DNA of 64,000 nt from an uncultured Coriobacteriaceae bacterium (GTDB lineage Bacteria; Actinomycetota; Coriobacteriia; Anaerosomatales; SLCP01). Position 1 is the first letter of the stretch. Every line of letters starts with the position of its first letter. Positions 224 to 40,849 of the stretch are shown here, in pieces. The stretch is from positions 12,441 through 76,440 of the forward strand of contig CAYGFZ010000001.1 in the NCBI GenBank assembly GCA_964349355.1. The letters run 5' to 3'. A program made the position numbers and the translations under genes. The notes beneath the pieces were generated by a model, which made no database searches, was not told where the DNA came from, and saw nothing but the letters and a program-made list of their open reading frames with translations.

Positions 224-2176
224 TTACTCCTCCGCCGAGGAAATCCCATCAAGTCTGAAGATGAATCTAACGTCGCCGGTGGCGCGGTCGGGCTTCCCGA
301 GGAACGTATCGTACTCCTCGGCCGCCAGCTCCATGCGGCGCACGGTCACCTCGCCAAGGCTCGCCTCGCCCAGACCTTCACCGATTCCGTCCGACATCGC
401 GCCGAGTCCATCGATTGTGGCAGAGATACCCGGCAGCTCCATCCCCTCGAGCGTCCCGCCGTCTCGGACAGCGAGCAGCGACACACGCAACTGTCCGAGC
501 ATCTCTGGTAACTCCTCGAGCGCACCAAGGCCCTCGGCAGCTGTCGCGATACCCGAACCGACCTCGCCGATTCCTCCGGCGACTCCGCGCAACCCCTCCC
601 GCGTGGTCACAAGTCCTGGCAACCGCTGTCCCTGGACGACTCCTCCATCACGCAGGGTCTCCAGTGCTGCGGCGAGCGCTTCGAACTGCCCGGGAAGACC
701 GGCCAGCGGAACAGTCCCTGACGCCAGTGCGTCGAGCGAATCGGCTATCTGTCCGAGTCCTGTGGCCAGCCCGTCGAGCGAATCGCGGGTTTCGATGAGC
801 CCGAGCGGCATCCCGAGCGCCTCGTTCCCGTCACGTAGCGCTTCGATCATGAGCGTCTGCGTGGAGAGTCCCGTCGCGATCTCGGTCACGGCCTCCACGG
901 TCGAGGTAGGCTCGATCGTCACCGTGTCGCCGGCCGAGGCAGCCACGAGGTCCCACGCCATGCTCTCGAGTTCGGCGTTCGATGCCGCGATCGCGTCCAG
1001 ATACGCGACCTGCCCGTCGATGAGCGCCACGAGTCCCGTTACTCCCTGCGCGGTATCTCGCACCCCCGATCCGATCACCTGGATCGCTCCGGGGACCTGG
1101 GCGAGACCCGAAAGATCCTGTCCGCGAATCCCTCCTATCACACCGTCGAGATAGGTGATCTGACCGTCAACGAGGTCGGCAAGCCCGTTTGCACCGGTGA
1201 CGATCTCACGTGCGCCTGCCGCGAGTTGCTCGAATCCCTCTCCCACGCCAGAGAGTCCCGCAAGTTCGTCGGTATCGATCCCGCCCGCAATGGCTCCAAG
1301 GACCTCGTGGTGACCTTCGGAGAGTCGTGCGAGACCGTTGAGCCCATCGCGGACCTCGCCGAGCTGATCGGTGACCGAAAAGTCCGGTGAACCCGCCATC
1401 TTCGGGAAGACCGAGACGACGATGGGCTCGATAGCGATATCGGTGCCGTCCATCTCGATCACAACCGTCTGCTCCGGCTGTGGGAACGCCATAAACGTAT
1501 GGCTGACCTTGGAACCGGTCACGGTCATGATCTCCGCATCGGCCTCGATGTTGCGAAACCGCGTCCCGTCCACGTCTATCATCACCGGAGCGAGCATCGG
1601 GACCCAGTACTCGACATCGTCGGTACGTACGACGCCATCGGCGTCCGCGTACGAAACGGTCTCCGTCACCACGAGTGAGTTCTTCACGGTGACCTCGATG
1701 CGGACGCGACCCGTTTCACCGGCGAGCTCATCAGGCTCGACAGCGCGACCGTCAAGGAAGTAGGCGGCTGAGACCTCGACGGGCAGCTCACGTTCGCTCT
1801 GAGCGCGGTAGAAGAAGTCACGGCGACCGTCGACATCCAACGTCCACTCGACACCCTCAGGCGTCAGTCTCGGCTCGATCTCATCTTTGAGGGCCTCGGC
1901 CGAGGTGAGGGGTCCCGGGTCGAGCACATCGAGCGTTCCGACACCCTCGACACGCAACCAATCGATGACAACAACGTCGCGTGGCTCGCCGAGCGAATCC
2001 GCAACGACGTATACGGTCTCATCATCGTGGATCTCGAAATCACCAGCAGCGCTCCTGCTCGATTCCGCGGTCGCCGGCAGGACCGCCGCAAGTGCGATCA
2101 CTCCCACGAGTACGACGGCGAGTAGTGCGGAACGGACAGTGTCCGATGTGATTCTCCTCGGCATGCTGGATCTCAC
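224..2176 (-). CDS. membrane-anchored or secreted protein with Leu/Gly heptad repeats (YhgE/Pip N-terminal-like), MMPL-associated
   Basis: 650-aa ORF with an N-terminal signal/anchor helix (ALLAVVLVGVIALAAVLPATA). A beta-rich region follows, then about 350 aa of L/G/A-rich helical repeats (LDGL, LxxGxxxL) resembling the X-X-X-Leu-X-X-Gly repeats of YhgE/Pip proteins. There is no C-terminal multi-TM block. The start at 2176 overlaps the MMPL stop (ATGA coupling). Confidence 0.7.
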   Translation of the reverse strand: MRSSMPRRITSDTVRSALLAVVLVGVIALAAVLPATAESSRSAAGDFEIHDDETVYVVADSLGEPRDVVVIDWLRVEGVGTLDVLDPGPLTSAEALKDEIEPRLTPEGVEWTLDVDGRRDFFYRAQSERELPVEVSAAYFLDGRAVEPDELAGETGRVRIEVTVKNSLVVTETVSYADADGVVRTDDVEYWVPMLAPVMIDVDGTRFRNIEADAEIMTVTGSKVSHTFMAFPQPEQTVVIEMDGTDIAIEPIVVSVFPKMAGSPDFSVTDQLGEVRDGLNGLARLSEGHHEVLGAIAGGIDTDELAGLSGVGEGFEQLAAGAREIVTGANGLADLVDGQITYLDGVIGGIRGQDLSGLAQVPGAIQVIGSGVRDTAQGVTGLVALIDGQVAYLDAIAASNAELESMAWDLVAASAGDTVTIEPTSTVEAVTEIATGLSTQTLMIEALRDGNEALGMPLGLIETRDSLDGLATGLGQIADSLDALASGTVPLAGLPGQFEALAAALETLRDGGVVQGQRLPGLVTTREGLRGVAGGIGEVGSGIATAAEGLGALEELPEMLGQLRVSLLAVRDGGTLEGMELPGISATIDGLGAMSDGIGEGLGEASLGEVTVRRMELAAEEYDTFLGKPDRATGDVRFIFRLDGISSAEE

Positions 2177-4245: not shown

Positions 4246-4895
4246 CAGCGAGCGATCCCATCGAAGAAAAGCCGCGCGATGAACGCGGCATGATCTTCAT
4301 CGGTGGTAACGCCGATGCGATCCTCGTACGGAACACTGAGCGCGCCCGCGGCAACACGCGTGTTGACCAGGCCGAAGAGGCACTCAGCGGCCATCCACGG
4401 GTCGACCGGCTCAAACTCACCGGCTTCGATGCCCTCGGTGATGACGGCGGCGAGCGCCTCGATGGTGCGAGAAATGGCGGTCAGCAGCTCTGCGGCGAGC
4501 GGGCCTTCGGGGTCGGTAATGGGACGGATGAGGATCCGCACAAGCCCTTCGTCGGCGCTCACGTCCTCGATCCGCATGGTGATGAAGCGCTCCAGGCGCT
4601 CCCGTGCTGCTGTGCCGGGAGCGAGGGCCGCCCGGGAGCGCGCGTCGAACACCTCGCCTGCCCGCTCGACGATCGCGCGCAGCAGCGACTCCTTGTCGGA
4701 GTAGTGATAGTAGATGAGCGCGGTCGAGACGCCGCACGTCTGCGCGATGTCGGCGACAGCGACCGCTTCGTAGCCCCTGCGGCCGAAGAGCTCTATCGCG
4801 CACCCGAGAATCCGCTCGCGGGTGTCGAGAATCGCGTCATCGCCGTGCGACGGGTGCCGTGCGACGGAGTCTGGATCGCGTGTAGGTCCTGGCAT
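4245..4895 (-). CDS. TetR/AcrR-family transcriptional regulator
   Basis: HTH signature ILGCAIELFGRRGYEAVAVADIAQTCGVSTALIYYHYSDKESLL. GGGGGAG Shine-Dalgarno (SD) upstream of the ATG at 4895. First gene of the MMPL operon. Confidence 0.9.
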   Translation of the reverse strand: MPGPTRDPDSVARHPSHGDDAILDTRERILGCAIELFGRRGYEAVAVADIAQTCGVSTALIYYHYSDKESLLRAIVERAGEVFDARSRAALAPGTAARERLERFITMRIEDVSADEGLVRILIRPITDPEGPLAAELLTAISRTIEALAAVITEGIEAGEFEPVDPWMAAECLFGLVNTRVAAGALSVPYEDRIGVTTDEDHAAFIARLFFDGIAR

Positions 4896-5034: not shown

Positions 5035-5700
5035 TCACCCCTCGATGACCGCCCGGTGCGCGAGCAATACTTTCCGAACCGCGGCAAGCCCGGCCCCCTC
5101 GTCGATCGCGATGGACGCCCGCACGGCGAGCGCTCCCTCGGCCATGTCGTGGTAGAGCGCGTAGGTGAGCCGGTCCTCGTCGTGCCGCGCGCGCCACACC
5201 AACCCTGCTGCACCCGGCGCACACGCGCACGCCGCCCTCCCCCACTCCCGCGTCAAAGGGTAGTCAGCCGAATCTGACTTCGTGAGCCACAGGCCCTGTC
5301 CCACGAGCCCCGCGTTCGCGCCGTGCAAGGCCACCAGCGCGAGATCACGAGTGACCTCAAGCACGGAGACCGACCTGCCGAGCACCCCGCGTATCGGCAC
5401 TGCCCGCGCCCCCTCGCCGGCGAGGGGGACGTCGCGCAAGACCACTTCGGCGACCGCGCCTTCGAGCGAGTCCGCCGCGTAGAGTACCCCAGGGTGACCT
5501 GTGGGCGAGTTGAAGCGGCCTCCGGTGAAGCCGTCCGGCACGCTCACATCGAACGAGATCGCGTCACGCGCCTGTGAGTGGATGCGCCAGAGCCGCGAAC
5601 CGGCGGACAGGATCTCGGTGGCGGGCCGTCCGATGATGCCGTCTGTCGGCGGCAGGCGGCGCTGGTCGACCCACGGGTCGCCCCCTCTCGCACCTGTCAC
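5035..5700 (-). CDS. RES-domain toxin (MbcT/PrsT-like NAD+-targeting family)
   Basis: 221 aa. Motifs LWRIH...GRFNSP..GVLYAADSLEGAVAEVVLR fit the R-E-S family layout. The start overlaps the upstream antitoxin stop by 4 nt. Confidence 0.85.
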   Translation of the reverse strand: MTGARGGDPWVDQRRLPPTDGIIGRPATEILSAGSRLWRIHSQARDAISFDVSVPDGFTGGRFNSPTGHPGVLYAADSLEGAVAEVVLRDVPLAGEGARAVPIRGVLGRSVSVLEVTRDLALVALHGANAGLVGQGLWLTKSDSADYPLTREWGRAACACAPGAAGLVWRARHDEDRLTYALYHDMAEGALAVRASIAIDEGAGLAAVRKVLLAHRAVIEG

Positions 5701-6495: not shown

Positions 6496-7650
6496 CTAAC
6501 GGGAGCAGGCTTCCCGGTTACCGTCCCCCGCTGCCACCCTCGCGAACTCCTCGGCAAAACGCGAAGCGAGGCGCTCGAAGGTGAATCCCTCGGCCATCTC
6601 GCGCGCGGCGAAGGGTACCGGCGGGTCGAGGATCAGCGAGCGCAGCTTGGCCACAAGCGCGCCCGGGTGCTCGTAACGGAACTCGGGCGCATAGAGGTCG
6701 GGGTATGCAAGGCGATCGGGCACGAGCGGGTAGGCGCCGCAGTAGCACGCCTCGACCATCGCCAGGCCAAAGAACTCGTTGATCGCTGTCGAGACAGCGA
6801 TGTCTGCCGAGGCGAGGAGTTCCGCGTACGCCCCGCGCGATCCCGGCTCGCCGGCGTGCACGAGCCGGTCGCCGAGGGCCGCGGCGGCCTGCTGCATGAG
6901 GTCGGCGGTCTCGCGGAACGCCTGGCCGGCGATGGCGACCTCGAAGTCGAGCCCCTCGCCCGCCAGCGTGCTGACCGCGGCGAAGAACGCCTCCGGGTCC
7001 TTGTCGTGCTCCCAGCGATGCGGCCATACGATGCGGGGTCGACGGCCACGAGTCGGCGGCAGCACGTGATCGAAGGGCACCGGATCGAACGGGGGCGCCA
7101 ACACCGCAGACTTCTCGGCGATTTGCTCGGCGACGCCCCGTGGATGGTGATCGGGGAACCGTTTCAGGAACGGCCCGCTCTCGCCGACGAACCGCTCGAG
7201 GTTCCAGCGCGTATTGAAGAGGCAACGCTGCGCAGCGAGTGCGCTCGTGATGTTGGTGAGAGGGAACTGGAAGTCCCACTCGGCCTCGTGCCGGTTGGGG
7301 TAGACGAGCTGGTTCTCGTGGAAGTAGACGATCGCGGGGACAGCGGCGAGTTCGGGACCCGCCAGGCCCTTGAACTCGGCGAGGTTCACGAAGGTAGAGG
7401 CGAACACCAGGTCGAAAGCGGGTCCCTCCCCTCCCGCAGTGCGCCATGCCTCGGCGAGCGCGCGCGCCTCGGCAGCCATCGAGATCGCCGCACCGCGCAT
7501 CCGCCACTTCCACTTTCGTGCAGGTAGTGTGAGCAAAGTCCACCCGGCATCCACATGCTCCACGAGCCCATCGAGAACCGCACGATGCGAGCCGCCGTAG
7601 TAGGGCTCGAGCGCGAGGATCCGCAGTCGACCTCCCCTGCCCGCATCCAT
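6496..7650 (-). CDS. glycosyltransferase, DUF3524 (QTMAN N-terminal-like) + GT1 family
   Basis: 384 aa. N-terminus RILALEPYYGGSHRAVLDGL...LTLPARKWKWRMRGAA, then VYFHENQLVYP and LFNTRWN motifs (the HENQ / FNS-type signatures of PF12038), followed by a GT-B C-terminal half. The ATG overlaps the thiI stop (TGATG). Confidence 0.8.
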   Translation of the reverse strand: MDAGRGGRLRILALEPYYGGSHRAVLDGLVEHVDAGWTLLTLPARKWKWRMRGAAISMAAEARALAEAWRTAGGEGPAFDLVFASTFVNLAEFKGLAGPELAAVPAIVYFHENQLVYPNRHEAEWDFQFPLTNITSALAAQRCLFNTRWNLERFVGESGPFLKRFPDHHPRGVAEQIAEKSAVLAPPFDPVPFDHVLPPTRGRRPRIVWPHRWEHDKDPEAFFAAVSTLAGEGLDFEVAIAGQAFRETADLMQQAAAALGDRLVHAGEPGSRGAYAELLASADIAVSTAINEFFGLAMVEACYCGAYPLVPDRLAYPDLYAPEFRYEHPGALVAKLRSLILDPPVPFAAREMAEGFTFERLASRFAEEFARVAAGDGNREACSR

Positions 7651-11555: not shown

Positions 11556-12938
11556 TCACCACCCGTCGATCGAGATCGGACGTTGCGGGCCCTCCCAGAT
11601 ACTCTCACGGGAACCACCGCGCTCATCGAAGCGAGTGACGACCGTGCGGATCGATGCGTCACGATCGCTCCACTCTTCGTCCAAGATCAGGATGCCGCCA
11701 TCAGGATGCCACACAGCACCGTAGTTGATCGGCAGATGACCGAGCTGGGTCGTCTCATCTGGAGTCATGAGCCAGATCGACTCGTCAGCGAGAATCATCA
11801 CTTCCGCCTGTCCCGCGCCGATGATGCTCAGGTTCCACGAGCGGTCCCACTCCTCAGGCACAGATAGGTCGTCGAACCGATTCGCATGAAATGAGACGCC
11901 CTCCGGCTCAATCGCAACAAGACGAGTCGCACCTTCCCGCTCGTCAGCCTCGTACGCTTCCTCGTTGATCTTCGTGGCAAAGAGAACGTCGTCTGAAGGA
12001 TGCCACGCGGCGACTGCCGCACTCGCTCCCATGCCGACGTGCCCACGCATCTCGGCGACGACGCCCCCCTCGACTGCGTCGACGACGAGTATCCGTGCCG
12101 TATCGGACACCTCTTCCGACTCCCCGGTCTCTTCGGGCTGATCGGAGCCACCAAAGAGCATATCCCACCAGGAGATCCCCTCATCGAAGAATGGCATCTC
12201 GGTGATGGGTGAACGTTCGACAAGGGCAAGGAACCGGCCCGAAGGCGACCAGCCTACGATGTCGAAGGTGCCGAATCCCGCGGGAAGCACGACCTCGCGA
12301 GTCTCGCCAGGAGAGGCCTGGCTCTCGATCAGAAGCCGCGATGGGTAGACTCCCCTGCTGGCATCGACCTGTGGATACACCGTCAACTCCGCTGGACCTG
12401 GCCAGGCCGTCCAGCTGGGATTGGGGTTGTCAGCGGGACGGGGGCTGCTCTCGGAAAGATCCCACGTGTACAGTTCATCCGGAGCACTGTCACCCAGCGG
12501 ATGCACCCGACCTGAGGTCGGAGCCGCGCTGTCCCCCGCAGGGACCAGCCATGCGACCCATCCGAAGTGCTCGACCGCAAGAACGTGATAGCCGGCCTCC
12601 GTCCGCGTCTCGTCGGTCTCGCGATCCCAGACGACCACCAGCGGTTCCTCATCGGCGGTGAAGGTCTGGATCACAGCGTAGCGCCCGTCCCCACTCCAGC
12701 GGACGAACTCGGCACCCGACTGAAACGTCTCCACAACGCCCTCGAACGCGGTCCGGGCAACGAAGACCGATGCGACACTACAGACACAACATAGAAGCAG
12801 TGCCACGACCACCGCGACGAGAACCACTGCGACCGATGCCCGACGCCGCGGCTCCGATTCCGTCGGTATCGGCTCGGGGATCGGCGCAGGCTGATCGGAC
12901 GGTGCCTGGGGGAGGTTCCCGTCACTGTGTTCAGACAT
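11556..12938 (-). CDS. hypothetical membrane-anchored protein with PD40/TolB-like beta-propeller repeats, embedded in the pyr operon
   Basis: 460 aa. Pro-rich N-terminus, one TM helix (VAVVLVAVVVALLLCCVCSVASVFVA), then repeated W-S/H-P/G-D/S-G motifs: WSGDGRYAV, VVVWDRETD, WSPSGRFLAL, AAWHPSDDVLF, AVWHPDGGILIL. The start overlaps the pyrD stop by 8 nt, and the stop lies 9 nt before the pyrF start. Confidence 0.75.
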   Translation of the reverse strand: MSEHSDGNLPQAPSDQPAPIPEPIPTESEPRRRASVAVVLVAVVVALLLCCVCSVASVFVARTAFEGVVETFQSGAEFVRWSGDGRYAVIQTFTADEEPLVVVWDRETDETRTEAGYHVLAVEHFGWVAWLVPAGDSAAPTSGRVHPLGDSAPDELYTWDLSESSPRPADNPNPSWTAWPGPAELTVYPQVDASRGVYPSRLLIESQASPGETREVVLPAGFGTFDIVGWSPSGRFLALVERSPITEMPFFDEGISWWDMLFGGSDQPEETGESEEVSDTARILVVDAVEGGVVAEMRGHVGMGASAAVAAWHPSDDVLFATKINEEAYEADEREGATRLVAIEPEGVSFHANRFDDLSVPEEWDRSWNLSIIGAGQAEVMILADESIWLMTPDETTQLGHLPINYGAVWHPDGGILILDEEWSDRDASIRTVVTRFDERGGSRESIWEGPQRPISIDGW

Positions 12939-13857
12939 CCAGTGCCCCCGTAAGATCCTTTACCGATCGAATGGCGCGGGCGTGGCAGAGCTCGGCCAGA
13001 CCGTCGACGATGCGAACCGTACTCGTCGGGTCCACGAAGTTGGCGGTACCCACGGCTACCGCGGTCGCACCTGCAAGCATGAACTCGGCGGCGTCCTCGG
13101 CGGTCATGATGCCTCCCATCCCGACCACAGGGATACTCACCGCTCCGGCGACCTGCCAGACCATCCGCAAGGCGACAGGCTTGATCGCCGGTCCAGAGAG
13201 CCCCCCGACGACCCGTGCAAGTCTCGGCCGGAACGTCTTAGCATCTATCGCCATCCCGAGGAGTGTGTTGATCAGCGAGACTCCATCAGCGCCCGCGGCC
13301 TCGACGGAGCGGGCCACCTCGACGATGTCGGTGACGTTGGGCGAGAGCTTGACGATGAGCGGACGATTCGTGACCGCTCGGCACACGGCGGTGACCTCGC
13401 TGGCTGCGGCACAATCGGTACCGAAGGCCATACCGCCGGCATCGACGTTGGGACACGAGATGTTGACCTCGTAGGCGTCGACATGCGATTCGCGGTCGAG
13501 ACGCTCGATCACCGCAGCATACTCGGCCACCGTATGACCGGACACGTTCACAATGACCGGGACGCCCGGGGCATTCTCGGCGAGCCATACGAGGTCTGTC
13601 GCACAGAACTCTTCGACACCGGGGTTTTGCAGGCCGATGGAGTTGAGCATCCCGCTAGATGTCTCAGCGATCCGAGGAGCAGCATTGCCCTCCCACGCCT
13701 CAAGCGAGACTCCCTTGGTGACGATGGCGCCAAGGCGCTTCAGGTCGATGAAGTCAGCATACTCCCGACCGCTGGCGAACGTGCCAGAGGCGGTCAGGAC
13801 CGGGTTGGCGAGCTCAAGCCCGGCCAGGTTCACTCTCATGTCCACGCGACTGCTCAC
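12931..13857 (-). CDS. pyrD: dihydroorotate dehydrogenase B, catalytic subunit
   Basis: LANPVLTASGTF, GAIVTKG, NISCPN, GGI..AEDA motifs of class 1B DHODH. GTG start with an AGGA SD. Confidence 0.9.
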   Translation of the reverse strand: MSSRVDMRVNLAGLELANPVLTASGTFASGREYADFIDLKRLGAIVTKGVSLEAWEGNAAPRIAETSSGMLNSIGLQNPGVEEFCATDLVWLAENAPGVPVIVNVSGHTVAEYAAVIERLDRESHVDAYEVNISCPNVDAGGMAFGTDCAAASEVTAVCRAVTNRPLIVKLSPNVTDIVEVARSVEAAGADGVSLINTLLGMAIDAKTFRPRLARVVGGLSGPAIKPVALRMVWQVAGAVSIPVVGMGGIMTAEDAAEFMLAGATAVAVGTANFVDPTSTVRIVDGLAELCHARAIRSVKDLTGALDV

Positions 13858-13889
13858 AGGTGGTCCTATCCTCTACCTCGACTTGATGG

Positions 13890-14726
13890 TCAGTGTCCGG
13901 GTCCTGTACCAGGCGAGTCCCACAGGACCTCCTCGGCCGGGAAGACAGGGCCGTCGACACAGGCGCGCTTCAGTCCGGAGGTCGTGCTCACCACACACGA
14001 GAGACAGGCGCCGATGCCGCACGCCATCAGCCGCTCAAGCGACACCTGACACGGTACATCGACCGCCGCTGCCTGACTTGCGACGATCCGCTGCATGACC
14101 TCGGGTCCGCAGGTATAGATGACGTCGAACCTTCCCTCCCGCAGGAGAGATTCGCACACACCCGTGACGAACCCATGGGTGCCGCACGAACCGTCATCGG
14201 TCGCGACCACAACGCGGCGGGCGACACGTTCGAAGAGGTCCCGGCCCAGCAGGCGATCTTCGCAGGGAGCGCCTGCGGCGACCGTGACAGCGACCCCGCG
14301 TGCGGCAAGGTCCTCGGCAAGCATGCCGAGGGGCGCTGCACCGAGGCCCCCCGCGACGAGTAGCGCATGAGCGGTGTCGTCGGGGATGTGCCACCCGGTA
14401 CCGAGCGGTCCGAGGAGGTCCATCCTGTCATTCGGCTGTACCTCAGCGAGGAATCGCGTGCCGGCACCGAGCACCTGATAGAGGATCTCGATCCGCTCAC
14501 CGCTCGCCCGATAGACCGAGAACGGTCGTCTGAGCAAGAAGTCGGTCCCACGGGCGATCCGCAGATGTACGAACTGACCGGGGCAAACAGATGCGGCGCT
14601 GTGAGGTGCGTCGAGAATGAGCAGACCGACTCCCTCCGACACGCGATCGTTCGCGACCACGGTCACGTGTTCGAGCGAAGGCGCGACCCGGCGATGACTG
14701 CACTCTGCGCCACCCGATTCGATCAC
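13890..14726 (-). CDS. pyrK: dihydroorotate dehydrogenase B, electron-transfer (FAD/2Fe-2S) subunit
   Basis: FNR-like fold (RRPFSVY) and C-terminal Cys cluster [10 protein letters not shown]. The start overlaps the carB stop. Confidence 0.85.
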
Positions 14727-32951: not shown

Positions 32952-32981
32952 ATGGTAGCGCGCCGTGCGGTCACCGGTCAA
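32952..32981 (-). promoter_or_regulatory. candidate ileS leader promoter (TTGACC-18-TACCAT)
   Basis: Minus strand reads gcgTTGACCggtgaccgcacggcgcgcTACCATcg. The -35 sits in the last codons of the DUF167 gene, about 40 nt upstream of the T-box 5' motif. Confidence 0.3.
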
Positions 32982-33255
32982 CGCTCCGCGGGTCGCCGAA
33001 GGCGGCGCGGACCTCCTCGGCGGTCACGTTCTCGATCTCGAGCTGCTTGTGGCGTGAGGAGTGACCGCGCAGGACCGTGACCGCGCTCTTCGGTACGCCG
33101 AGGGACTTCGCCACTACGCGACAGACCGCAGCATTGGCCTTGCCGCCGTCGGGAGCGGCAGTGACCCGGACTGCAAGCTCGTCTCCGCGACAGCCTACGA
33201 CCTCATCACTCGCGGCGCGCGGGGTAACGTGAACCGCTATACCCACGCACGCCAT
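32971..33255 (-). CDS. DUF167 (YggU-family) protein
   Basis: 94 aa; V.V.P.A..D.V.G......L.V.V.A.P..GKAN motif pattern of YggU. Typical position after divIVA. Confidence 0.8.
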   Translation of the reverse strand: MACVGIAVHVTPRAASDEVVGCRGDELAVRVTAAPDGGKANAAVCRVVAKSLGVPKSAVTVLRGHSSRHKQLEIENVTAEEVRAAFGDPRSVDR

Positions 33256-33261
33256 TGCGGC

Positions 33262-34101
33262 CTAGTCGATCTCCTCGATATCGATGTCGTCTTCGCGCTC
33301 ACCTAGCGAGTCGAAGCCGGGCATCGAGAACTCGCGCGGAGCCTGCATCTCCACATCATCAGGAAGGTCTGCGGGCGATTCCAACTCGCCGAGGTTGACC
33401 CCGGTGACGAAGCCGGACTCGGGCACCTCGACGACGGGCATGGCCCGGGTAGCGCTGGGGTCGTCAGCGGGTGCGGGCGCGGGTGCTGCCGGCCGCGCAG
33501 TAGCCGGAGCCGCTGGTTCGGGCGCTAGTGCCGATGCGCTTGCAGCGACAGCGGCGCCAGCTTCCTCGAGTGCCGCCATCGCAGATTCCGCAGCGACTTC
33601 GACCTCGGCGACCATCCCGCTGTCGGTCTTGCCTACCAATACGCTGATATCATCGGGCAGCCCGACCTCGCGCACGCTTTCCAGGTGCCTCTCCAACGCG
33701 CTGACAAACTCGGAGCGAAACTCCTCCTCGGCCTGCTTGATGCGAACGAGCTCGCCCGCGACCGTCTGCTTCTGCCGGAGCGCACCGTGGATAAGTTCCT
33801 TGGCCTTGACCTCGGCATCACGAAGCAGCGTTGCCGCCTCCTCGCGCGCGCGCATCACGATATCCTCGGCGGAGCGCTGCGCGGCGAGCATCGTGTTGTG
33901 GAGGGTCTTCTCCATCTCCTGATAGGAGCGGACCTTGTCACTTGCGCCATCGAGACGCTCGGACAGGTCGATGTTCTCCTTGAAGAGCCGTTCGAACTCG
34001 TCAGCCACGTCATCGAGAAAGGTATCGACCTCTTTCTCGTCGTATCCGCGCAACGAGTGGCGGAACTCCTTGTGGTGGATGTCCATCGGAGTGAGCTTCA
34101 T
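33262..34101 (-). CDS. divIVA: cell-division/polar growth protein DivIVA
   Basis: MKLTPMDIHHKEFRHSLRGYDEKEVDTFLDDVADEFERL is the canonical DivIVA N-terminus. Coiled coil, then an Ala/Pro-rich tail. Confidence 0.9.
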   Translation of the reverse strand: MKLTPMDIHHKEFRHSLRGYDEKEVDTFLDDVADEFERLFKENIDLSERLDGASDKVRSYQEMEKTLHNTMLAAQRSAEDIVMRAREEAATLLRDAEVKAKELIHGALRQKQTVAGELVRIKQAEEEFRSEFVSALERHLESVREVGLPDDISVLVGKTDSGMVAEVEVAAESAMAALEEAGAAVAASASALAPEPAAPATARPAAPAPAPADDPSATRAMPVVEVPESGFVTGVNLGELESPADLPDDVEMQAPREFSMPGFDSLGEREDDIDIEEID

Positions 34102-35802: not shown

Positions 35803-36480
35803 CTACCTACCGAACAACACCCTCCCGACACGCACGATCGTAGCGCCTTCCTCGATAGCAACACGGAAGTCGCCTGACATGCCCATCGAAAGTTCATCTA
35901 ACTCTACCCCATTGAGGGGCATCGCGCGTAGAGAGTCGCGCAGTTCTCTCAGCTCACGGAAGACCCAGCGCACGTCTTCTGCCCGGGCGAACGGAGCCAT
36001 CGTCATCAAGCCGCGGACCTCTATGGATGCGAGGTGCGAGGCCTCAACAAGCGCCTCGCGCACATCCGCGGGGGCGAACCCGTGCTTGCGCTCCTCGGCG
36101 GCTACATTTACCTGCAGGAGCACCGGCTGGATGACGCCCGCCTCGGTCGCACGGTGATCGATCGTGGAGAGCAGTTTGAGCGAGTCTACCGAGTGGATCA
36201 GGTGTGCCCTGCCGACGACATCTTTGACCTTGTTGCTCTGCAACGTGCCGATGAAGTGCCACCGCACATCGGGAAAGAGTCCCTTCTTGCCGAGGAACTC
36301 CTGCACGCGATTCTCACCGAAATCCACCACGCCTGCGGCGATCGCTGCACGTATCTCCGGGACACCGACGGTCTTGCTGACCGCGACGATGGTGATCTCC
36401 TCGGCGGAACGACCGCACGCGTCCGCAGCGTCCGCAACCTGTCGTCGGACCGCCTCGTATCGCAGTGCGATGCTCGGCAT
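35803..36480 (-). CDS. yggS: YggS-family pyridoxal-phosphate homeostasis protein
   Basis: IVAVSKT (PLP lysine), HFIGTLQSNK, LSMGMSGDF motifs. Confidence 0.9.
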   Translation of the reverse strand: MPSIALRYEAVRRQVADAADACGRSAEEITIVAVSKTVGVPEIRAAIAAGVVDFGENRVQEFLGKKGLFPDVRWHFIGTLQSNKVKDVVGRAHLIHSVDSLKLLSTIDHRATEAGVIQPVLLQVNVAAEERKHGFAPADVREALVEASHLASIEVRGLMTMAPFARAEDVRWVFRELRELRDSLRAMPLNGVELDELSMGMSGDFRVAIEEGATIVRVGRVLFGR

Positions 36481-36485
36481 ACGGG

Positions 36486-37154
36486 CTAGCGAGCCTCCTC
36501 GTTGGCGTCGGAGAGTGCTTCGAACTCACCGGTCACAAGGTATGCGATGCGCTCGCCGATGTCGACCGCGTTGTCCGCGATCCTCTCGAGGTACCGGCTT
36601 GCGAGCACCATCGAAGAAGCCCACTCGATATCCTCCTCGTCCTGAAGGCGTGCGAGTTCGCGGAAGAACTGCTTGTAGAGATGGTCGATCGGCTCATCGA
36701 GGTCCTGGAGCTTGCGTGCAAGTTCGAGGTCGTTCTTCTCGAGCGCCTCACAGGTCGCGTCCAGTACCCGGTAGACAAGGTTGCCCTGGGCCTGGATGAG
36801 GTCGTAGAGCGTCTGCGGACCACGCCTGTCGGCCGTACGCTTGGCTGCCCGAGCGATGTTCACGCCGAGATCGGCCATACGCTCAAGGTGCAGAGCGATG
36901 TAGGTGAGCGAGTGGAGCAGCCTAAGGTCGCGTGCGACCGGGAACTGAGTGGCTATCACCTCAAGGGAGTGCTCCTCGACGGCGAGCGTACGACGGTCGA
37001 TCTCATCGTCGCCCGCGATGACCTTCTGGGCGAGGTCGAGGTCGCCGTTGACCAGGGAGTTCACGGCATCGCGAGTCACGTCCGTGACGGTGTGGCCGAT
37101 CGAGAGTACCTCGGCCTTGAGATCTTTGAGTTCCTGCCTGAATCCTTCGCGCAT
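36486..37154 (-). CDS. phoU: phosphate signalling complex protein PhoU
   Basis: Two PhoU repeats (FPVARDLR..., ASRYLERIADNAVDIGE). ATG at 37154 with an AGAGGAG SD. Confidence 0.9.
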   Translation of the reverse strand: MREGFRQELKDLKAEVLSIGHTVTDVTRDAVNSLVNGDLDLAQKVIAGDDEIDRRTLAVEEHSLEVIATQFPVARDLRLLHSLTYIALHLERMADLGVNIARAAKRTADRRGPQTLYDLIQAQGNLVYRVLDATCEALEKNDLELARKLQDLDEPIDHLYKQFFRELARLQDEEDIEWASSMVLASRYLERIADNAVDIGERIAYLVTGEFEALSDANEEAR

Positions 37155-37246
37155 CGGTGCGCTCAACTCCTCTTGTGGTACGCAAGCCGGTATGGGTGCT
37201 TTCAGTATACCGCGCGCCACCTGCCGAACCCGCAGTTCACGAAGGT

Positions 37247-37548
37247 TTAACCGAAGCGCCCGGTGATGTAGTCTTCCGTGCGCCTGTCCTTCGGCGAGGT
37301 GAACAGGTTCGATGTACGGTCGTATTCGACCAGGATGGCGGGCTCTCCAGCCTCTTCTTGCAGGAAGAACGCGGTGAAGTCGCTCACTCGTGCGGCCTGC
37401 TGCATGTTGTGGGTCACGATGACGATCGTGATGCGGTCCTTCAACTCCGCCATGAGGTCCTCGATCTTCTGGACCGAGGTCGGATCGATGGCCGAGTACG
37501 GCTCGTCCAGGGTGAAGAAGTGCCGTACCCTCTGGAGCGGATAGTCAC
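37247..37548 (-). pseudogene. pstB: pstB 3' fragment (Walker B to C-terminus only)
   Basis: The frame reads ..[49 protein letters not shown]...[10 protein letters not shown]. It is closed upstream by TAA at 37549-37551. No Walker A, Q-loop or signature motif is present. Confidence 0.75.
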
Positions 37549-38111
37549 ATTACGATCGAGTGGAACGCCTCGCGCGTACCGGAAGCCTCATCGCGGTTGA
37601 CAAGACCGATCTCCTTGTCATAGCCGCCAAGTTCCGACCAGTTCTCGATCTCGCCGGAGAAGATCGCCCGAACCTGCTCGGTCGTGAGTGAGTCGACAGG
37701 GTTATCCCGATGGACGATGACCGTGATCGCATCGAACGCGATCGGGGTGTCGTAGAGGTCGAGCTTGGCCTCGGACGGCTTCAGGTCTCGTGACGAGGTC
37801 CCGACATCAGACGACCCATGAGCAACGGTCTCGATCCCTGCAGAGGACCCCAGGCCGGACACCAGCACCCTCTTGTCCGGGAAGCGCTCATGGAACATCT
37901 CGCCAGCGATCTCTGCGATAGGAAGCATGGTCGTCGAACCGGTGACGATCAACTCCGTCGCCGAGGGGGTCCGATCGCCGCACCCCGAGAGGGCCACGGC
38001 GATCAGCACAACGAGACACGCCGACACGAGACCACGAAGTACCGCGGGTATGCGCATGGATGCGGGAAGAATCGCTTGAATTGTATGCGGCCGCAAGAGC
38101 CGGTTCGCCAT
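37545..38111 (-). pseudogene. pstS: truncated pstS-like phosphate-binding lipoprotein (N-terminal about two thirds)
   Basis: Lipobox VALSGCG, then GSTTMLP, GLGSSAGIE, GTSSRDLK, IAFDAITVIVHRDNP, SGTREAF as in the PBP_like_2/PstS family. The ORF ends after 188 aa, directly at the pstB fragment. Confidence 0.65.
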
Positions 38112-38990
38112 CTACTCGCCCTCTGTGATCACAGCGAGCGCACCGTGCCTGCCAGTCATCGATTCGGCACGATACGAAAAGAACCTGTCAGTGAGGTCGT
38201 GAGTGCACGCTCCTACTGACGTGGTCCGCCCGGCCGACACGCCACTGCGCGCCAAGCTCTCACGAACGACGGCAGCAAGATCGAGACGCCCGTCGACCGC
38301 GCCGATGGTATCAAATATGTTGCAGAAGTGCGAAAGCAATCTTTCATCTAATTCGTAGCAGCAGCGTGCGATATGTGGACCGATATAGGCGTTGATGTCC
38401 GAAGGGGCACAACCCGCATGCGCGGCCAGTGCCGAAGCGGCGGTTCCCGGGAGGGAGACGAGTGCGCCGCGCCACCCTGCATGCACGACCGCGACAGCGG
38501 GTCGCGGGCGGGTGGCCACCAGGACGACGGGTACGCAGTCCGCGAAGAACATCATCAGCGGCAGGTCACGCGCCGATGTCACAAGCGCATCGGTGGCGGG
38601 CACAGGAGGCCGGCTCCCGTGTGCGGGCTCCGCGAACGTTCCCGAGCCTGCCTCTCGATCACCCACGACTTCGATCCGCTCGCCGTGTACCTGCTCGGCA
38701 GTCACGAGCCGCTCTCTAAGACCGGCGATACCCAGTGCACCGAAGAGTCTCGTGCGGTTTGTGTCGACTGCAACTGCGGCGTCGCCCACGTGCGCCGCAA
38801 GGTTGAGTGACTCATACGGTGATACGCTCACGCCTCCGGAGCGCTCGGTAAATACGACGAGGATGCCACGTTCCCGAAGAACCGGATCAAGATGGATGAC
38901 CACCTCATCGTACTCAACCCTTCGGAGCGACGGATTGACTGCGATGTCACTGCGTGACGACACGGAGGGCTCCAAGCAGACGGGAAACAT
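38112..38990 (-). CDS. pgeF: peptidoglycan editing factor PgeF / YfiH (DUF152 laccase-domain) protein
   Basis: FTERSGGVS.SPYESLNLAAHVGD, DALVT, ADCVPV, HAGWRG motifs. Start uncertain (38963-39029). Confidence 0.8.
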   Translation of the reverse strand: MFPVCLEPSVSSRSDIAVNPSLRRVEYDEVVIHLDPVLRERGILVVFTERSGGVSVSPYESLNLAAHVGDAAVAVDTNRTRLFGALGIAGLRERLVTAEQVHGERIEVVGDREAGSGTFAEPAHGSRPPVPATDALVTSARDLPLMMFFADCVPVVLVATRPRPAVAVVHAGWRGALVSLPGTAASALAAHAGCAPSDINAYIGPHIARCCYELDERLLSHFCNIFDTIGAVDGRLDLAAVVRESLARSGVSAGRTTSVGACTHDLTDRFFSYRAESMTGRHGALAVITEGE

Positions 38991-39086
38991 TGCGGAAGGA
39001 ATTGGCAGGCGGGGGCGTTTGGGGCACACTTATTGTAGCCGAGGTGAGTACGACCTTGGCGGGACTGCTCAGGGGGAGGTGACACT

Positions 39087-39536
39087 ATGAAGCGGTCATC
39101 TAGCTTCGCTGCTGGTATCGTTGCTCTCTGCACGCTGCTCGCAGCCGCCCCCGCGTTCGCACAGACCTACGACGATCCTTTCGGCCCGACGTTCGGAATG
39201 TTCTTCCTTTTCTGCTGGGGCATCATGGCGCTCATAGGCCTGGCGCTGCTCGTGCTCAACATCTGGATGCTCGTCGATGTAATCCAGCGACAGGAGTACG
39301 AGTTCCCGGGATCCACGGGCAGTAGCAAGACCCTGTGGCTAGTCCTCTTGGTCGTCGGTCTCGTCATTGGATTCGGATGGATCGTAGCGCTCGTCTACTA
39401 CTTCCAGGTCTTCAAGAAGGTGCGGCGCGGCACGGCTCAGCCCGGTGCCGCACAGCAACCTACATACGCTCCACCACCCGCAGCTCCTCCGACGCCGCCA
39501 GCTCCACCGGCGCCTCCGGAGGACGAACAGCGATAG
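39087..39536 (+). CDS. secreted/membrane PLDc_N-domain mini-protein with Pro-rich tail
   Basis: GGGGGAGGTGA SD. Signal peptide (AAPAFA), then LLVLNIWMLVDVIQR....KTLWLVLLVVGLVIGFGWIVALVYYF (PF13396-like), then PPPAAPPTPPAPPAPP. It is the only plus-strand gene between 1 and 55.9 kb. Confidence 0.7.
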   Translation: MKRSSSFAAGIVALCTLLAAAPAFAQTYDDPFGPTFGMFFLFCWGIMALIGLALLVLNIWMLVDVIQRQEYEFPGSTGSSKTLWLVLLVVGLVIGFGWIVALVYYFQVFKKVRRGTAQPGAAQQPTYAPPPAAPPTPPAPPAPPEDEQR

Positions 39537-39674: not shown

Positions 39675-40754
39675 CTAGTACGAACGCTGCTTCAGAAATG
39701 GAGGAATCTCGAGATCGTCATCAGCGTGGATCGGCTCGAAAGTGGGGATCGACGATCCGGAATCCTCGGCGGACCCGAACTCCATCTTCTCCTGCTTGCG
39801 GCGACGTCCTTCGAATCCGGTGGCTATCACGGTGACGCGAATCTGATCCATCAGGGAGTCGTCGATGACAGCTCCGAAGATAATGTTGGCATCCGGGTGG
39901 GCCGCTGCGGCTACGACCTCGGCTGCCTCGTTGACCTCGAAAAGACCGAGGTCCGAGCCACCAGAGATGGACAACAGCACACCCTGCGCGCCCTCGATGC
40001 TTGACTCGAGCAGGGGGCTTGAGATGGCGGCCTTTGCGGCATCGTGCGAGCGATTATCGCCAGCAGCAAGTCCGATGCCCATGAGTGCCGATCCGGCGTC
40101 GGCCATGATGGTCCGAACGTCGGCAAAGTCGAGGTTGATCAATCCGGGAACGGTGATCAAGTCGGTGATTCCCTGAGTGCCCTGACGCAAGATGTCATCC
40201 GCGATGCGGAACGCGTCGAGGATTGAGGTCTTCTTCTCGGCTACCTGCAGCAGCCGATCGTTGGGAATCACTATCAGCGTGTCGACGACCTCGCGCAGCC
40301 GAGCGATGCCATCCTCCGCCTGAAGAGCCCGCTTGCGCCCCTCAAACGCGAACGGGCGGGTTACGACACCGACCGTGAGCGCTCCGATCTCCTCCTTGGC
40401 GACCTCGGCGATGATGGGCGCCGATCCCGTACCCGTTCCACCACCCTCACCTGCGGTGATGAAGACCATGTCTGCGCCCTGAAGCGCTTCCTTGATCTCT
40501 GCCCGGCTCTCCTCTGCGGCCTGAAGACCGATATCGGGATTCGCGCCGGCACCGAGACCCTTCGTCAGGTTCACTCCTATGTGAACCTTGTAGTCAGCCT
40601 CAGACATCAGCAGAGCCTGGGCGTCAGTGTTCACGGCGATGAACTCGACGCCCTTGACGCCAGCCTCTACCATCCGATTGACGGCGTTCGTGCCACCGCC
40701 GCCAATGCCGACGACCTTGATCACTGCAAGGTAGTTCGCGCCCGTCTCGAGCAT
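39675..40754 (-). CDS. ftsZ: cell division GTPase FtsZ
   Basis: [15 protein letters not shown] and [10 protein letters not shown] motifs. The ATG at 40754 has GGGGAGGGA upstream; the track ORF is over-extended. Confidence 0.97.
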
Positions 40755-40849
40755 GGTTTCCCTCCCCGTTCGTGAAGGTGCGAGAGAACTAGATTCAACC
40801 TCAACTTTACGGTTACTGTCTAGGTGCAACGGTCAATCTTCGCATAAAC

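Follow-up and report, generated by a model that had tools for sequence, protein, structure and literature searches.

Is the short run of phosphate-transport gene fragments that lies between pgeF and yggS in this uncultured Coriobacteriaceae bacterium a genuine deletion scar, a set of small functional genes or a product of assembly, and what does it say about phoU, the gene of the set that appears whole? The initial annotation of the window, by which we mean the whole 64,000-nucleotide stretch analyzed here, proposed a scar of a pstSCAB operon with phoU retained. The nearest relatives carry the operon intact at the same position, and the two fragments are orthologous to its two ends; we are confident that a pstSCAB-phoU operon was indeed deleted here, leaving this segment as its genuine scar and sparing phoU. 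The scar itself is ordinary gene decay, and taken alone would be a routine pseudogene call, whereas the comparative pattern described below is mildly informative. Two genomes with intact operons, CSMAG_1208 (GCA_030603745.1; loci L007 and L012) and GCA_007118405.1 (L009), provide the main comparisons, and the features of the locus are as follows.

39675-40829, minus strand: ftsZ
39087-39536, plus strand: small DUF2516 gene between ftsZ and pgeF
38112-38963, minus strand: pgeF (Cu-oxidase_4/YfiH family), 283 aa; Pfam PF02578, E = 6e-61
37548-38111, minus strand: pstS', N-terminal remnant of pstS, codons 1-188; TIGR02136, PDB 4gd5 and blastn
37545-37549, minus strand: junction J1 (37548|37547); alignment to pstS of CSMAG_1208 and GCA_007118405.1 and read-through translation
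37511-37546, minus strand: PstS C-terminal piece of 12 codons; alignment with nine PstS homologues
37499-37510, minus strand: junction J2, microhomology CTGGACGAGCCG; parental sites in CSMAG_1208 and blastn
37247-37510, minus strand: pstB', remnant of pstB, 87 codons and a TAA stop; TIGR00972 and PDB 9k3x
37204-37209, minus strand: -10-like TATACT box, 55 nt 5' of the phoU ATG
36486-37154, minus strand: intact phoU of 222 aa, containing two PhoU repeats; TIGR02135 and Pfam PhoU in two stretches
35803-36480, minus strand: yggS (PLP-binding protein); Pfam Ala_racemase_N, gene calls and synteny

The genes around the scar, which continue 3' of yggS with sepF, proC, yggT and divIVA, resemble in content, order and orientation the actinobacterial ftsZ-pgeF(yfiH)-yggS-sepF-yggT-divIVA(wag31) block, which we take to be exemplified by Rv2150c-Rv2145c of M. 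tuberculosis. The window differs from this block in the opposite-strand DUF2516 gene between ftsZ and pgeF, in proC between sepF and yggT, and in phoU, ancestrally pstSCAB-phoU, inserted between pgeF and yggS. The pgeF gene, which was also called in two of the junction-bearing contigs from other assemblies (L001 and L002), has a stop codon that directly abuts the pstS start (TAG ATG; 38111/38112 in the window), as it does in both CSMAG_1208 and GCA_007118405.1 (10000/10001), and the yggS start follows the phoU stop after 5 nt. The phosphate operon of this clade appears, from this arrangement, to be co-transcribed with pgeF and translationally coupled to this peptidoglycan-editing gene. Compared with the E. 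coli-type pstSCAB-phoU operon, as represented by models TIGR02136, TIGR00972 and TIGR02135, the relatives keep the same S-C-A-B-U order but hold the operon inside the division cluster with pstS start-stop coupled to pgeF. In the window, the equivalog or subfamily models of PstS and PstB are matched by the fragments, and that of PhoU over its full length, but pstC and pstA are gone and PstS and PstB are cut, leaving a remnant.

The PstS-like ORF (37545-38111, minus strand, 188 aa) has a signal peptide and the lipobox ALSGC, and this lipoprotein N-terminus (...LIAVALSGCGD...) aligns with the N-termini of homologues. It corresponds to the first ~60% of a phosphate-binding protein, so that about 36% of the two-lobed binding fold is missing, and is ~71-74% identical in amino acids to its counterpart in CSMAG_1208. 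Its match to TIGR02136 covers positions 18-184 of 295 and ends there, with a score of 142.7 bits that falls below the 206.6 cutoff, in agreement with the earlier reading of this ORF as a remnant; matches to Pfam PBP_like_2 (PF12849; positions 6-152 of 267) and to PDB 4gd5 (residues 18-172 of 279) are truncated likewise. Homologues from a 5.8-billion-protein database have lengths of 292-297 aa, which bears out the expectation that PstS normally continues for roughly another 100 aa, and the sole 188-aa PstS among the matches listed was the window's own.

The PstB fragment (37250-37510, minus strand) matches TIGR00972 over positions 167-248 of 248 and PDB 9k3x PstB over residues 175-257 of 257, and shares 95% amino-acid identity with residues 182-268 of the CSMAG_1208 PstB. 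As previously described, it runs from Walker B to the C-terminus, covering Walker B, the D-loop, the H-loop and the PstB-specific C-terminus, though a conserved Cys after the DEP motif is replaced by Tyr. The Walker A, Q-loop and LSGGQ signature motifs are absent from pstB', and what lies upstream is a PstS-derived segment and a TAA stop, which is located at 37550-37552 and not at 37549-37551 as first reported. The first in-frame start, an ATG at 37453 (Met-121 of the remnant region), would give an ORF of 68 aa. Searches of the whole 64 kb window by tblastn with the PstC and PstA of CSMAG_1208 (E <= 1e-8) found neither permease gene, consistent with the claim that both are missing. With no permease gene, and with an ATPase that has lost its ATP-binding half, Walker A, Q-loop and signature included, the pstSCAB transporter encoded here cannot work. 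In metabolic reconstructions, the 188-aa 'PstS' and 68-aa 'PstB' ORFs of these MAGs are best flagged as remnants and not entered as a phosphate transporter.

That an operon was once complete at this position is indicated by its relatives. CSMAG_1208 has an intact pgeF-pstS-pstC-pstA-pstB-phoU-yggS-sepF-proC-yggT-divIVA arrangement, GCA_007118405.1 has the identical gene order with pstS beginning at the base after the pgeF stop, and two further loci (L010 and L011) also have the full operon. A scan for PhoU among GTDB species representatives yielded 24 related loci (L012-L035) from MAGs labelled Coriobacteriia, Anaerosomatales or Actinomycetota, and pgeF-pstSCAB-phoU-yggS is intact in most of these, including most of L015-L035. 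In more distant Actinomycetota, pstCAB-phoU lies outside the division cluster, beside neither ftsZ nor yggS. In a neighbour-joining tree of five proteins, built with a custom routine and 200 bootstraps, the window is sister to the intact CSMAG_1208 with 100% support. Since the nearest intact relative and most of the ~20 other species-level relatives share the position of the operon, the placement of pstSCAB-phoU between pgeF and yggS is ancestral in this clade of Coriobacteriia (OPB41/Anaerosomatales-like). The flanks named in the initial annotation, pgeF and yggS, were thus correct, while its premise that these two genes are normally adjacent does not hold for this clade, in which the operon between them is the normal state. 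A limited literature search found no description of pstSCAB-phoU embedded among the division genes in this clade or of its repeated deletion with phoU spared; the paper describing Anaerosomatales makes no mention of pst, phoU or ftsZ, and no paper was found in that search on the run and assembly accessions used here.

Alignment to the intact operons resolves the scar into two junctions. By blastn, homology to the pstS of CSMAG_1208 and GCA_007118405.1 ends at 37548 and the match to pstB begins at 37509. The 38 nt that separate the stop of pstS' from this match were considered as filler or as diverged in-frame pstS, and both readings were rejected on protein alignment, which identifies the interval as PstS C-terminus. 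Specifically, 37511-37546, read in the pstB' frame, encodes a segment equivalent to residues 245-256 of the CSMAG_1208 PstS (EYPVQRLLHFFT); by hand count 26 of its 36 nt are identical to that genome, and the motif YP.QR..HF[FY]T occurs once in the six-frame translation of the window. The first junction, J1, is an internal pstS deletion of ~176 nt relative to CSMAG_1208 (codon 186 to codon 244), and the frameshift that it causes creates ATG|TGA, in which the TGA at 37545-37547 ends the 188-aa ORF directly after codon 188. The second, J2, is an in-frame deletion of 2,412 nt. It runs from codon 257 of pstS to codon 181 of pstB, ending at the PstB Walker B, and took with it the 3' end of pstS, pstC, pstA and the first two thirds of pstB. 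Together the two account for 2,588 missing nt, which, allowing for small indels, fits the shortening of the pgeF-phoU distance from 3,533 nt in CSMAG_1208 to 957 nt in the window; the breakpoints are good to a few nt, the nearest intact relative being 15-26% diverged at the DNA level. The deletion originally placed at about 37520-37555 is therefore real, but the single junction proposed there gives way to two, flanking a surviving 36-nt piece from the 3' part of pstS.

The parental sites of J2 in CSMAG_1208 are GTGGGCGAGCCG (pstS codons 257-260) and ATGGACGAGCCG (pstB codons 182-185), which agree at 10 of their 12 positions. Judging from this sister genome, J2 would most likely have arisen by slippage or illegitimate recombination between near-identical 12-nt sites of the form (G/A)TGG(G/A)CGAGCCG, and the scar would then be a clean example of a microhomology-mediated deletion. 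J1 and J2 may represent one complex event or two.

The window is not the only member of the clade to have lost these genes. In L013 a different scar is seen: pstS is intact, and pstC breaks off at residue 205, where it runs out of frame into pstB at residue 239. In four other loci (L014, L019, L032 and L033) pgeF is followed by phoU after roughly 140 nt, and no pst remnants were found there at E < 0.01. One of these, L014, retains GTTAAACCTCTGTGAAC, which spans the pstB stop codon in relatives, indicating that its pst-less state is derived. The pst-less lineages never cluster together in the 200 bootstraps, and two of them pair with intact ones (L032 with L035 at 98%, L033 with L030 at 100%), on which basis the phylogeny argues for at least five independent losses of pstSCAB, in the window lineage, L013/L014, L019, L032 and L033. 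Every lineage with a pst loss has a full-length phoU, whose product is 76-88% identical to that of CSMAG_1208, much as in pst-bearing lineages at similar distance.

In the window itself, PhoU matches TIGR02135 over positions 3-211 of 212 with 159.5 bits, above the 130.25 cutoff, and the Pfam PhoU domain in two stretches, which upholds the description of this gene as intact. Its dN/dS against CSMAG_1208 is 0.052, with five amino-acid changes unique to the window and three to CSMAG_1208 (GCA_007118405.1 as outgroup), and PhoU is under strong purifying selection. A TATAAT or TATACT box precedes the phoU start codon by 36-76 nt in 20 of the 22 lineages, pst-less ones included, while a scan of 36400-39200 for sigma-70 and terminator consensus found no -35/-10 pair and no terminator. 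We suggest that phoU is probably expressed from its own candidate promoter in the pstB-phoU spacer, and with such a promoter the upstream deletions would leave phoU and yggS-sepF expressed. A further motif, GGTTAAACCTTCGTGAAC, is conserved across the pstB stop codon (37225-37250 in the window), 5' of the phoU -10-like box; it recurs in the corresponding spacer of the loci L012, L009, L013, L014 and L021, and is kept even in the pstB-less L014. This motif may be a candidate regulator binding site. Canonical PhoU signals phosphate status together with PstB and PhoR. The locus has no intact PstB, and no PhoR or PhoB was recognised in the 64 kb window, where the two kinases present are of PAS/GAF types.

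Phosphate uptake is indispensable, and the organism presumably has another route for it. The reading that we somewhat favor for the consequence of the loss is that the deleted operon was a redundant copy, with uptake and a partner for PhoU provided by another pst, pit or Na/Pi system elsewhere in the genome. This concerns the consequence only and is compatible with the deletion scar. The five or more independent losses, all accompanied by a conserved phoU, are in keeping with redundancy, against which stands the finding that no second pst or pit gene lies within the 64 kb window; Pfam scans of 30 further ORFs of the window likewise recovered no Pit or other phosphate transporter. Precedent for a PhoU that is paired with Pit or stands alone comes from Staphylococcus and mycobacteria (PMC7326077, PMC5741670). 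Mycobacterial PhoY1/PhoY2 and S. aureus PhoU2 resemble the window PhoU in lacking an adjacent Pst, whereas the stand-alone state in the window has come about by recent deletion of the neighbouring pst genes. PhoU would then act with some other partner here.

Repeated pst loss with phoU spared points to either a Pst-independent role of PhoU or a second uptake system in this clade. Doubtful, though worth stating, is the specific proposal that in OPB41/Anaerosomatales-like Coriobacteriia PhoU belongs to the pgeF-yggS-sepF division operon independently of Pst, with pstSCAB a dispensable passenger. If PhoU is Pst-independent, it might, for example, couple phosphate or polyphosphate status to division, and pstSCAB could be repeatedly deleted with phoU always kept. 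This subsurface and sediment clade would be a natural system in which to ask what PhoU does without Pst.

We consider it very unlikely that the short ORFs have become functional genes in their own right, coding for a stand-alone, truncated PstS lipoprotein and a small peptide derived from PstB, and are held under selection instead of decaying. Neither fragment contains internal stops, the pstS' start codon is still coupled to pgeF, and the dN/dS values against CSMAG_1208 are low, at 0.16 for pstS' (12 amino-acid changes unique to the window and 18 to CSMAG_1208, with GCA_007118405.1 as outgroup) and 0.054 for pstB' (three and one), values that would also fit continued selection. Such values are, however, expected if most of the divergence from CSMAG_1208 (dS about 1) predates a recent deletion, and the intact pstS genes of CSMAG_1208 and GCA_007118405.1 give a comparable 0.26. 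The same short genes were found in no other lineage examined, the binding fold of PstS is incomplete, and pstB' is without every ATP-binding motif upstream of Walker B. On the reading that we prefer, the abutment of its ATG on the pgeF stop makes it probable that transcription and translation of pstS' continue and yield a truncated, probably unstable lipoprotein, which is very likely non-functional, while pstB' would be a dead fragment, silent or at most expressed as the 68-aa ORF.

Genuine decay, then, remains the preferred reading of both ORFs, and the same substitution data bear on its age. Apart from the deletions themselves, the remnants carry no disabling change, and their dN/dS values resemble those of intact orthologues; relaxation is not yet visible, and the deletion is young relative to the split from CSMAG_1208. 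The loss can accordingly be called recent, as first proposed, in relative terms.

Two contigs of a related MAG, GCA_964350345.1, indicate that erosion is continuing. The first (L092) aligns with the window over 4.3 kb at 95.7% identity, starts inside the PstS mini-fragment and shares J2. The second (L095), which we term allele B, carries pgeF and then only the opening 11 nt of pstS, which run straight into the final ~40 codons of pstB; the joint corresponds in window coordinates to 38101 to 37364, a TAG stands in the pstB frame, and 5 of 83 nt in the overlap differ from L092. The Pst remnants of this species group are thus being whittled away, and the scar can be read as stepwise erosion from allele A to the larger-deletion allele B of a sister population, although allele B may instead have arisen independently of allele A. 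The loss in allele B of almost all of pstS', together with the stop in pstB', speaks against a function for these ORFs.

Within pstB' itself the window and L092 differ at only 2 of 261 nt even though flanking genes have pS = 0.12, a near identity that could be taken in favor of selection. Both differences are nevertheless non-synonymous and alter the codon for the conserved Walker B Cys, which reads TGC in relatives, TAC in the window and CAC in L092. We set selection aside as the explanation for this low divergence because, with two alleles in one co-assembled MAG, a mixed strain origin would be the simpler account: L092 and L095 show that the bin mixes two strains, and the 5' end of L092 would more simply derive from a window-like strain in the co-assembly. 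A search for homologues of the PstB remnant returned mostly contig-end fragments. Short PstB ORFs on two long contigs (L093 and L094) were rejected as deletions, since these are long-read assemblies (ERZ25039503, ERZ25039459; 'contig_' names) with genes split by frameshifts. In L094 ftsZ, yggS, sepF and pstB are all in pieces, consistent with frameshift errors, and in L093 pstB alone is split (182 + 87 aa).

The least tenable explanation is an assembly artefact. A stretch of 151 nt over both junctions recurs with zero mismatches in six other contigs (L001-L006) from six samples or runs, three of them in ENA MEGAHIT assemblies (ERZ27247803, ERZ27247806 and ERZ27247798) and three in Logan single-run assemblies (ERR3094291, ERR3094287 and ERR3094290). 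Two of the six are 99.8% variants of the window with clusters of SNPs elsewhere, so the junction contigs are not copies of one contig. Exact-pattern scans of JGI metagenomes for J1 and J2 returned no match. That an assembly collapse or chimeric join stripped pstC, pstA and the adjoining gene ends from a truly intact operon, the alternative kept in the initial annotation, is thus scarcely credible: the window is a metagenome-derived contig judged from assemblies alone, and the contigs of GCA_964350345.1 break exactly at the locus, but six independent assemblies, made with two assemblers, agree exactly on the junction, the sequence shared by the joined ends is only 12 nt and too short to collapse a de Bruijn graph with k>=31, two junctions and a frameshift are unlike a collapse product, and no full-length PstS more than 74% identical occurs in the 5.8-billion-protein database, which includes these samples. 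On the evidence of assembled contigs, the loss is fixed in the sampled population, and a low-frequency intact allele may be present in the same samples.

Several further observations were made outside the scar. Contigs of near-identical strains depart from the window only in tight clusters of SNPs, 22 of them within 300 nt in L001 (47542-47835) and 9 in L003, all in an 85-nt part of yggS (36247-36331); these clusters look like short recombination tracts. The large ORFs at 224-2176 (minus), 11556-12938 (minus) and 12982-14049 (plus) have no Pfam match at E <= 1e-5, their frames having been chosen by a GC3 heuristic and possibly being wrong; one of them adjoins an MMPL transporter and two lie between pyrF and carB in a pyrimidine cluster. 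Between divIVA and ileS, L092 (about 4264-4807) differs from window positions 33040-33330 at 135 of 150 nt, though it is otherwise a ~95% relative; a PF02594 (YggU-like) gene at 32971-33255 (minus) was called in the window and in L002, and none in L092. This local divergence looks like a replacement or a loss. Lastly, the window encodes at 5035-5700 (minus) and 6496-7650 (minus) a RES-domain protein, the toxin of RES-Xre type systems, and a glycosyltransferase, the latter with a QTMAN_N (tRNA-queuosine mannosyltransferase N-terminal) domain and adjoining thiI.
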